NCBI GenBank assembly: GCA_049999805.1
Contig: JBNGIO010006282.1
Span: forward strand, 1-64,000
Direction: 5' to 3'
Source of the DNA: Folioceros fuciformis
Lineage: Eukaryota
DNA length: 64,000 nt
The notes beneath the pieces were generated by a model, which did no database searches, was not told the DNA's origin, and saw nothing but the letters and a program-made list of their open reading frames with translations. Numbering within the stretch: position 1 is the stretch's first letter; the number at the start of each line of letters is the position of its first letter. This document shows positions 2,220 through 3,969 of the stretch, piece after piece. A program made the translations under genes and the position numbers.

Positions 2220-3969
2220 CTAGACTCTGGTGGCGTTCATGCTTCTCCAGAGTTTTTCTTTGAAAGTCCGTTCCACCTCAAACATGCTGGGTCTTAGCCT
2301 CTTGACACTATTCGTACAGCGTCTAGCAACTTCTAGCACAACCTGCAGCTCGGTGACATCCACTTCCTTGCCAAGCAAGGGATCCACAAGGGACAATGGG
2401 TCTTGAGAGGCAGAAATTTTGTGTGCCCAGGAGGACATGAGATCTTGTTCTGGAACACCCAACAGCAACTCCAACAGCACCACACCGTACGCGTGGATGT
2501 CCTCCTTTAGAGCAGATGCCCGAGGAGACTGCACCTCAGGCAGTCCTTGCGCGCTGCTCAACTTGGACAAATTTCCTGCAACTGCATCAGGTCTCATGAG
2601 CTTGAGCAAGCACCAGTCTCCCAGCTTAGCCGAGCAGGGTTCACGTAGGAAGATCTTGGATGACTTGATGCTGCCGTGCATGATCGGGGGGATCATGAAC
2701 TGGTGCAAATACTGCATGCCACATGCAACATCATATGCAATGCGCATTCGGTGCGCCCAGTTCAAGGCTGCTGCTGCTGCTGCTCCTTTGGAGCTGTGGA
2801 GCAGGTCGTATAGGCTTCCCTTCGGCATGTGCTCCAACACAACAATGTGCTCTCCTGCAAGATGGGCACACATCCAGTCAGAAACACCACATGAATCAGT
2901 CACCAGGGCTTGATGAAGTGTGTTAGTAATACCTACCTCTCTCTTGACAAAAGCCCAGTAGATCCACCAGACAAGGATGTTGCACTTTAGAAATCGACGA
3001 TGTTTCGATGTTGAAGTCTCCATCACAGCATCCACCCGAAATCTCCCTTTTCACAACGGCCCGAGTACTGTCCGGAAACCGAGCTATATAAGATTCCCAA
3101 AATTCATCCTTCCCCACCAGGGTAGTGAACTGGCTTGTTGCACGCTCCAGCTCTTCGTAACCAAACATGCGCAGCCTACTGGGCGTGTCACTCTCTGCTG
3201 AACGACAGGAAAACGGACCGCTCTTCTCGATAAGTCTGGTGAGCTCCGAGGTCTTCTGAGCTCGGTACTTATGCCAAAACAGCCACAACAAGACTCCAAA
3301 CACAAGTGCCAACGCCCAGCCCAAGGAGGCAGCAACAGCAAGACCCACAATCAAAAACATGTGCAAATCAAACCCTCTGCGCCCCTCCCCTTCTTCTCCC
3401 TCCCCACGAGATCTCAAGCTCCGATCCTGCAACACATATGCTTCCCCAACCCCTTCTTCCCTTCCTGCTACCAAGAGTGTGAAGCTCATCCCAGGTGCAA
3501 CCTCGGCTAGTGTCAGATTCGCAGCATCGCCCGATTTCTGCACAACCTTCACGACCATGGTTTTCCCGCCAGTAATTTCAGACGGCCCGTGCTCAAACAT
3601 CCTCCGCTTGAAAACCCACCTCTGGCTCTCAATCTGACTGCAAGAACTAAGAACCAAGCTAAAACACCCAGCATTGCCCCGCACGGCTTCCACACAGAGC
3701 GTTCCATCTGTCTCCAAAGACAAAGACCCCGCACCAACGTCGTACCTCCAACGCTCCGCGACCTTTCCCGCCCAGCAGGGAGCCAGATACACAGCACCGC
3801 CCACTTTGACACTACCCACTTTCAAACACCAGGCATCCCCCAATTCAAGGCCTTCAGCAACAACCCAACTCCAGGCCGCGCACGTCTGCGACCAGCCGCT
3901 CCAGCCCAGCAACACCAGTAGTCCCAGAGCCGCAACCCTGAGCATCCGAGCGATCCGCAGCCAGCCCAT
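2220..3969 (-). CDS. Receptor-like pseudokinase with ricin-B (R-type lectin)-like ectodomain; 2 exons (3969-2937, 2854-2220)
   Basis: Signal peptide, then two C-x(n)-C-x(n)-(E/Q)RW repeats, a TM helix (FLIVGLAVAASLGWALALVFGVLLWLFW) and an RLK/Pelle-type kinase fold (F.YEEL..AT..F, LNW..RMRIA.DVA.G..YLH, DI.AYGVVLLELL.G, RPSM.EV). An 82-bp GT-AG intron at 2936-2855 joins GFCQER to GEHIVV in frame. Confidence 0.85.

Follow-up and report, generated by a model that had tools for sequence, protein, structure and literature searches.

The usual teaching divides the lectin receptor kinases of plants into L-, G- and C-type proteins, with the LysM and malectin receptors beside them. The L-, G- and C-type proteins and the LysM receptor-like kinases (RLKs) are type-I receptors of the RLK/Pelle kind with an ectodomain of lectin fold, and the same is predicted for the product of a gene on the minus strand, at 2220..3969, of a 64,000-nucleotide stretch of Folioceros fuciformis DNA (contig JBNGIO010006282.1, positions 1 to 64,000; the window hereafter). 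The fold differs, however, as the ectodomain is related to the ricin-B or R-type lectins. At a Pfam E-value of 10 or below the gene contains no Lectin_legB, B_lectin, Lectin_C or LysM domain, and at the same threshold exon 1 gives Ricin_B_lectin and two chance-level rows only. An earlier reading of this DNA, made from the sequence alone and called the sequence-only reading below, had likewise placed the gene outside the L-, G-, C-type and LysM classes.

The closest counterparts are RLKs of Ginkgo biloba (Gb_14981-14986 and Gb_01911), Pteridium aquilinum and Adiantum nelumboides (MCO5568268.1) as well as P0151, in all of which an N-terminal R-type trefoil follows the signal peptide, as it does here. 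These proteins are single-pass, share the Cys and (E/Q)xW columns of the Folioceros protein and possess kinases that form one clade with its own. In them the trefoil is separated from the transmembrane (TM) helix by a DUF642 domain and the catalytic motifs are intact (HCD, HGD, HRD or HSD), whereas the Folioceros gene has neither DUF642 nor intact motifs.

Two further groups of proteins resemble one half of the gene each. The ectodomain shares two-repeat homology and a predicted trefoil fold with R-type lectins and CBM13 modules, such as the B chains of type-2 ribosome-inactivating proteins (RIPs), the CBM13 of Streptomyces xylanase and the lectin domains of GalNAc-transferases, but here a TM helix and a kinase follow it in the same protein, its sugar sites are mostly replaced and its third repeat is degenerate. 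The kinase is comparable to that of BIR2, an RLK that also has a degenerate Gly-rich loop and degenerate catalytic residues and is expected to work via partner binding, although BIR2 has a leucine-rich repeat ectodomain and belongs to another kinase subfamily. In the main text of PMC10868138 BIR2 is described as a pseudokinase that competes for BAK1.

The literature search found no published ricin-B receptor kinase, in keeping with the earlier claim of a little-described RLK class, and the supplements of a fern paper (PMC12512272) may list such proteins. The text of that paper treats as an unclassified class the DUF642-containing RLKs and receptor-like proteins of ferns and a DUF642-kinase of Taxus, with the ricin part unmentioned. 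Across 21 species, Table S3 of PMC6362431 gives 13 architectures containing ricin-B, and a kinase is part of none of them; the accessible text of PMC5485960 names only GH27, GH5, ricin-B and RIP as ricin-B partners in four angiosperms, and that of PMC2846932 lists no ricin-B partner domain. The word 'ricin' is absent from the main text of three surveys or reviews of RLKs or lectin RLKs (PMC10834447, PMC5485988, PMC12757656), and neither 'ricin' nor 'DUF642' occurs in the main text of PMC10868138 and PMC10152718.

We consider it probable, with a good deal of room for doubt, that the locus is a functional, expressed plant gene for a protein composed of a trefoil ectodomain, a short linker, a TM helix and an RLK/Pelle pseudokinase, and that it is a derived member of the trefoil-DUF642 clade. 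The ancestor would have been a receptor with Ricin_B-like, DUF642 and kinase parts, from which the DUF642 module and the catalytic residues disappeared long ago. It is proposed that the trefoil recognises a ligand outside the cell, probably without using the canonical galactose-type pockets, and that the dead kinase has a scaffolding or allosteric effect, either positive or inhibitory, on an active receptor kinase, in the manner of BIR2 on BAK1. Ligand binding and the scaffold function are both suggestions, and a non-catalytic receptor or scaffold is the most likely role for such a sequence. The core of the sequence-only reading, an R-type receptor pseudokinase outside the standard classes, is kept, while the glycan sensing and possible microbial origin that it attached to this protein find no support. 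Unusual ectodomains and pseudokinases are both common RLK themes and nothing at this locus indicates a new mechanism.

Gene structure and transcript

The gene has two coding exons, which run from the ATG at 3969 to the stop codon TAG at 2222..2220 and were joined by script into a coding sequence of 1668 nt for 555 amino acids, with the terminal stop as the sole one. Its parts are as follows.

2093..4301, minus strand: transcribed region according to one public contig (2130 nt, run X2), spliced
3970..4301, minus strand: 5' leader of 332 nt with six upstream ATGs, from the X2 contig
2937..3969, minus strand: coding exon 1, residues 1-344 and the first base of codon 345; donor GT at 2936-2935
3886..3969, minus strand: predicted signal peptide, residues 1-28, read by eye (basic N-terminus, hydrophobic run, SQT)
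3739..3843, minus strand: trefoil repeat 1, residues 43-77, with Cys48 and Cys65 and E-R-W instead of QxW
3607..3738, minus strand: trefoil repeat 2, residues 78-121, with Cys92, Cys110 and Q-R-W
3463..3606, minus strand: third ectodomain segment, residues 122-169, which may be a degenerate third lobe and has an NLT sequon at 151
3361..3462, minus strand: acidic, Gly-rich linker, residues 170-203 (34 residues), without DUF642
3274..3360, minus strand: TM helix, residues 204-232, followed by HKYRAQK; read from the translation and aligning with the TM helix of P0142
3088..3114, minus strand: degenerate Gly-rich loop GKDEFWESY, residues 286-294, from the alignment to relatives
2855..2936, minus strand: intron of 82 nt, GT..AG, phase 1; acceptor AG at 2856-2855
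2220..2854, minus strand: coding exon 2, the rest of codon 345, residues 346-555 and the stop TAG
2655..2678, minus strand: catalytic loop HGSIKSSK, residues 404-411; HRDMKSSN in BRI1, with Asp to Ser and Asn to Lys
2610..2618, minus strand: DWC in place of DFG, residues 424-426, with the same DWC in P0142
2093..2219, minus strand: 3' untranslated region up to the end of the X2 contig

Three public runs were aligned to 2010..6000. The X2 contig aligns at 4301..2936 and 2853..2093 with no mismatches and skips exactly the predicted 82-nt intron (reported on the plus strand as 'skips 82, CT..AC, cut +1'), whereas the contigs of the DNA runs X1 and X3 read straight across it. As a GT..AG intron is removed exactly, the X2 contig comes from spliced RNA, and the gene is therefore transcribed, with its splicing as predicted. 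The frame and splice sites, previously described as intact, are so, with 555 open codons and a splice that the contig matches. Signal peptide, ectodomain, single TM helix and kinase succeed each other in the order found in receptor kinases, as predicted directly from the translation, and a single-pass type-I membrane topology is suggested.

Ricin-B-like ectodomain

For two lobes of the ectodomain, homology to the R-type lectin domain is solid at the level of sequence. Pfam matches Ricin_B_lectin (PF00652) to residues 45-118, which correspond to profile positions 53-126 (29.3 bits, E 1.1e-6), and a single-sequence search of the PDB finds type-2 RIP B chains and CBM13 at 1.5e-4 to 1e-3 (1ggp_B at 1.5e-4). 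A profile of the ectodomain aligned with four N-terminal domains of related RLKs (alignment A1, five sequences) matches 50 PDB sequences at E≤0.01, all named ricin-type trefoil proteins, with a xylanase CBM13 as the best (5.6e-9); this match spans profile positions 21-95 only, which amount to two repeats. The repeats also resemble each other, as hhalign aligns repeat 1 with repeat 2 at a probability of 75% (E 2.5e-5). Cysteines 48, 65, 92 and 110 are invariant in the family alignment and occupy the positions of the intra-lobe Cys pairs, and the two lobes are probably stapled by the predicted disulfides. The ricin-B-like ectodomain and the two β-trefoil-style repeats of the sequence-only reading hold up well, and every sequence string that it quoted is present in the translation.

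The third segment (122-169), which had been taken for a degenerate third repeat, shows no hhalign similarity to repeat 1 or repeat 2 (probability <0.1%) and enters the trefoil by modelling only, at a predicted local distance difference test score (pLDDT) of <50. The (QxW)3 pattern is not followed, with E-R-W in repeat 1, Q-R-W in repeat 2 and no such motif in the third segment, where F163 is invariant across the five-sequence alignment.

Two AlphaFold2 (AF2) models were considered. The first, built from 11 sequences, was discarded as standalone fold evidence, being too weak (mean pLDDT 48.5, no Foldseek match at E≤1e-3, best VIA Z 8.0). The second, built from 12 sequences, has a mean pLDDT of 56.6, with 73-88 at model residues 20-90, across repeats 1 and 2, and <50 at 1-17 and 93-152. 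Foldseek finds six matches to it at E≤1e-3, of which the top one is the CBM13 structure 1knl (2.0e-4, template modelling score 0.54/0.64), covering 123 columns of a 126-residue CBM13. In a wide VIA-align comparison it is superimposed on 6ifb_A with a Z of 12.0 (root-mean-square deviation 2.7, 114 residues aligned), and 75 chains reach Z≥8; the matches listed bear the names of trefoil lectins, CBM13-type modules or other trefoil-fold proteins. The third segment, with its pLDDT of <50, is still contained within the trefoil superposition (model range 10..138). Modelling thus agrees with the β-trefoil of the sequence-only reading as far as the second model matches β-trefoils but does not extend the same assurance to lobe 3, and a complete β-trefoil is likely, with lobe 3 modelled at low confidence. 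The nearest ESM Atlas clusters are ricin-type as well, but at scores of 0.87-0.89, under the 0.9 level, they are a lead only.

The CBM13 alignment was transferred via A1 to locate the Asp (in C-L-D), the aromatic residue that precedes the second Cys and the Asn-Gln that precedes the Trp, which we take to line the sugar-binding pockets of ricin B and CBM13. The residues at these positions are given below.

Repeat 1: Asp position, K50; aromatic position, A63; Asn position, A71; Gln position, E72
Repeat 2: Asp position, E94; aromatic position, S108; Asn position, S115; Gln position, Q116 (kept)

One of the eight positions, Q116, is kept and neither lobe has the full set. Since the positions taken here as sugar sites are mostly replaced, canonical Gal/GalNAc-type binding is unlikely. 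The replacement of seven of the eight positions, including both stacking aromatics, also speaks against a true lectin receptor, in which the trefoil would bind a cell-wall or microbial glycan and the protein would be a glycan-sensing co-receptor or decoy, as first envisaged. Such a receptor would be in keeping with the homology to R-type lectins and CBM13, with the retained Q116-x-W118 of repeat 2, with E94 as a conservative substitute for Asp, and with the related RLKs, which join the trefoil to DUF642, a domain of pectin-linked cell-wall proteins according to the accessible text of PMC13516882. The third lobe has no lectin motif, however, and many trefoils bind proteins or nothing, and we rate a true lectin receptor as unlikely.

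Degenerate kinase and its age

Exon 2 matches the Pfam domain PK_Tyr_Ser-Thr with 55.6 bits, and it is an RLK/Pelle kinase as judged from its closest solved relatives, BRI1 (2.5e-21), SOBIR1, BAK1, SymRK, CERK1 and IRAK4. The kinase motifs, read from alignments to BRI1 and to five relatives, compare as follows.

Gly-rich loop: GKDEFWESY in this gene, GEGGFG/S in active relatives
Catalytic loop: HGSIKSSK in this gene, H(C/G/R/S)D.KS.N in active relatives
DFG: DWC in this gene, DFG in active relatives (DMG in P0030)

Ser406 stands where the catalytic Asp would be, Lys411 has taken the place of the catalytic-loop Asn, and the Gly-rich loop departs from its consensus at five of six positions, while the β3 Lys (K307), the αC Glu (E322) and the Asp of DFG (D424) are retained. 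As the active relatives are themselves mostly non-RD (arginine-aspartate) kinases, with HCD, HGD or HSD, the telling losses are those of the catalytic Asp and the catalytic-loop Asn. With both of these and the Gly-rich loop lost and K307 and D424 kept, the domain has the make-up of a pseudokinase, which would be catalytically dead and would presumably have lost ATP binding. The sequence-only reading had listed four lost motifs. Its loss of the Gly-rich loop and of HRD (HGS here) is evident from the alignments; DFG is altered to DWC but keeps its metal-binding Asp, and the loss of APE was overstated, as the G-L-P-E of 'GLPEV' aligns with the P-E at the end of the BRI1 activation segment.

The age of these lesions may be judged from a single close homologue. 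An exhaustive phmmer search of 1.84 billion representatives with exon 1 gave 138 matches at E≤1e-3 and one at E≤1e-30, P0003. A member of the 90% cluster of P0003, P0142 (394 aa), has a complete kinase preceded by a TM helix and a juxtamembrane region, and its motifs are GKEEFWEMY, HGN, K-S-S-R and DWC. From the TM helix to the end 187 of 349 residues are identical to this gene (54%), with 52% in the TM helix, 61% in the juxtamembrane region, 48% in the N-lobe and 55% in the C-lobe. The two proteins share GK-EFWE-Y, HG-, DWC and the intron position, together with 23 residues that occur in none of four active relatives. At this gene's intron position, after ...CDENG, P0003 reads on into the intron, whereas P0142 is spliced. 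A word-index protein search with P0001 scored 8000 candidates, none of which reached E≤1e-3, and the same kind of search with P0142 matched one distant RLK. Because a homologue of 54% identity carries the same lesions, the pseudokinase state is, on this comparison, old and retained.

The retained K307, E322 and D424 could be used for non-canonical phosphorylation by an atypical, weakly active kinase, and some kinases without the catalytic Asp keep trace activity. P0142, however, has Arg in place of the β3 Lys and its αC Glu position aligns with Gln, so that K307 and E322 are not jointly constrained; taken together with the replaced catalytic Asp, catalytic-loop Asn and Gly-loop positions, this makes residual catalysis very unlikely.

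P0142 bears equally on the question of whether the gene, though expressed, has no function and is a relic, an RLK duplicate decaying on its way to loss. The lost catalytic motifs, the absent DUF642, the long stem in the kinase tree, a leader rich in upstream ATGs and the single homologous cluster at E≤1e-30 would all fit such a relic. The lesions are old, yet the frame has been kept open, which argues against decay: there are 555 codons without stop or frameshift, the splice sites work, P0142 has kept the same lesions and intron position, and conservation is spread evenly from the TM helix to the C-lobe. A neutral relic would not hold an open frame across a divergence to 54% identity, and we regard this explanation as highly improbable. 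A functional gene for a non-catalytic receptor or scaffold is preferred to it.

Probable kinship with trefoil-DUF642 receptors and genomic setting

Four of the 138 phmmer matches, P0006, P0014, P0022 and P0030 from Ginkgo, Pteridium and Adiantum, also match the ectodomain and combine a Ricin_B_lectin-like domain with DUF642 and a kinase. A search of longer proteins with the A1 profile gave six matches, all from Ginkgo, and added the tandem set Gb_14981-14986, and P0151, a transcript, has the same architecture. The Pfam cut-off for Ricin_B is reached by four of nine such proteins (P0014 32.6, P0022 29.3, P0149 31.6 and P0150 33.5 bits) and the remaining five score 23.6-26.6 bits, while DUF642 scores 50-70 bits in these RLKs. 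As most of the nine fall below the cut-off, their ricin part may have been overlooked. The Ginkgo proteins P0147-P0150 and P0006 (Gb_14981-14986) have consecutive gene numbers and appear to form a tandem array, most of them with the non-RD loop HSD.

A careful IQ-TREE analysis was carried out on 52 kinase domains: of 143 proteins matching the kinase query, 54 had at least 235 aligned residues, from which the low scorers P0028, P0077 and P0125 were removed before the gene itself was included. It groups with P0142 as a sister (100/100), and the pair falls within a nine-row clade (ultrafast bootstrap 97, Shimodaira-Hasegawa-like approximate likelihood ratio test 87) that includes all six trefoil/DUF642 RLKs in the tree; within it the pair branches after Ginkgo Gb_01911. 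The neighbouring group consists of SPARK-domain RLKs (P0043, P0054 and P0066) and P0071, joined by a weak branch (75/95). SPARK-domain receptor kinases make up the OsARK1 group and have a different ectodomain (SPARK, PF19160), and the text of PMC10152718 assigns SPARK RLKs to subfamily URK-2.

If the tree is rooted outside the trefoil/DUF642 clade, a history in which DUF642 was lost is the simpler one. The gene gives no Pfam match to DUF642 (PF04862) at E≤10, and in a tblastn search with P0014 only the trefoil and kinase parts matched and the DUF642 part did not; a remnant DUF642 inside the gene was rejected on these two results. The architecture is not unique, and the gene is most likely, on sequence grounds, a DUF642-less and catalytically degenerate offshoot of the trefoil-DUF642 RLK clade. 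Since the plant RLKs that are its closest active kinase relatives carry N-terminal Ricin_B-like domains, vertical inheritance within a plant RLK clade is simpler than the microbially derived lectin module that the sequence-only reading had suggested, and the latter finds no support.

The ectodomain could nevertheless have been an independent acquisition of a pseudokinase, through exon shuffling or from a microbial source, rather than an inheritance from a trefoil-DUF642 ancestor. Its pairwise scores are higher with free ricin-B proteins (P0025 45 bits, P0031 42, P0065 41) than with the RLK trefoils (P0014 18, P0006 13), and a profile of RLK trefoils built without this gene aligns with residues 59-126 only. 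Divergent members of a family commonly score higher against canonical members than against each other, however, and the trefoil sits in the same N-terminal position right after the signal peptide as in the kinase's own clade, with the same four Cys and the same W/ExW/QxW columns. The gene has a spliceosomal intron and plant-type neighbours and gives no other hint of foreign origin. We think independent recruitment doubtful and retain descent from a trefoil-DUF642 receptor.

Several observations count against a functional receptor of this descent. The PF00652 match exceeds the gathering threshold (29.0) by just 0.3 bits, and AF2 confidence is low overall, with the third lobe at pLDDT <50 in both models. 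The profile of RLK trefoils scores 33.9 bits on this gene and 17-27 bits (best domain) on free ricin-B lectins, so that the ectodomains alone do not prove the link to the DUF642 clade. The pair has a long stem of 1.32 changes per site, which could misplace it in the tree, and the gene model of P0142, the only close homologue, has about 30 residues ahead of the TM helix and lacks an ectodomain, a gap that would also suit independent recruitment. The RNA label of run X2 is a guess, its origin from RNA being deduced from the exact removal of the intron, and the six upstream ATGs in the leader may limit translation.

A bolder view is that of an ancient, undescribed class of R-type lectin RLKs, made up of this gene and its relatives in ferns and Ginkgo, in which an active trefoil-DUF642 receptor would sense a wall or microbial ligand. 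The DUF642-less pseudokinase would be given over to regulating that receptor or to acting as its decoy, and would predate the split of the two lineages in which it is found; this is speculative and in our estimation rather improbable. If the class is real, it would be a receptor type kept by non-flowering plants and unreported in the examined text of the angiosperm surveys, and it would provide a natural pair of active and dead kinases for studying the origin of pseudokinase receptors.

The upstream ATGs of the leader lie at 4171, 4075, 4050, 4001, 3994 and 3985. The first of them starts an open reading frame (ORF) of 105 codons, which is in a different frame and overlaps the main start, and translational control of the gene by upstream ORFs is possible judging from this arrangement. 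A 47-bp tandem repeat (6.0 copies, 93% matches) is located at 1717-2000, about 90 bp past the 3' limit of the X2 contig.

The window is a nuclear, plant-like (streptophyte) region. Its other genes include Got1/Sft2, trihelix, GT2 cellulose-synthase-like and ABCF genes, an L-type lectin RLK and copia-type reverse transcriptase fragments; for the ABCF gene the nearest Atlas cluster is mostly Streptophyta. The L-type lectin RLK gene (52205-54803, minus strand) is 49 kb away and has at least two exons, a Lectin_legB domain (94.6 bits), a Pro/Ala-rich linker and intact HRD and DFG motifs. It is not closely related to the ricin-B gene, and an L-type relationship of the latter was rejected, as the L-type protein is encoded by a separate gene with a legume-lectin domain and active kinase motifs. 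Three long open frames (672, 494 and 662 aa) at 20464-26537 on the minus strand have no Pfam match at E≤1e-3. Runs of N mark assembly gaps at 12228-12327 (100), 27564-27663 (100) and 50822-50831 (10), the first of which lies inside the trihelix-like ORF at 12020-13624. The copia-type fragments extend over 58832-63663 on the minus strand, with RVT_2 matches of 247.5 bits (62296-63663) and 97.4 bits (59956-60360).

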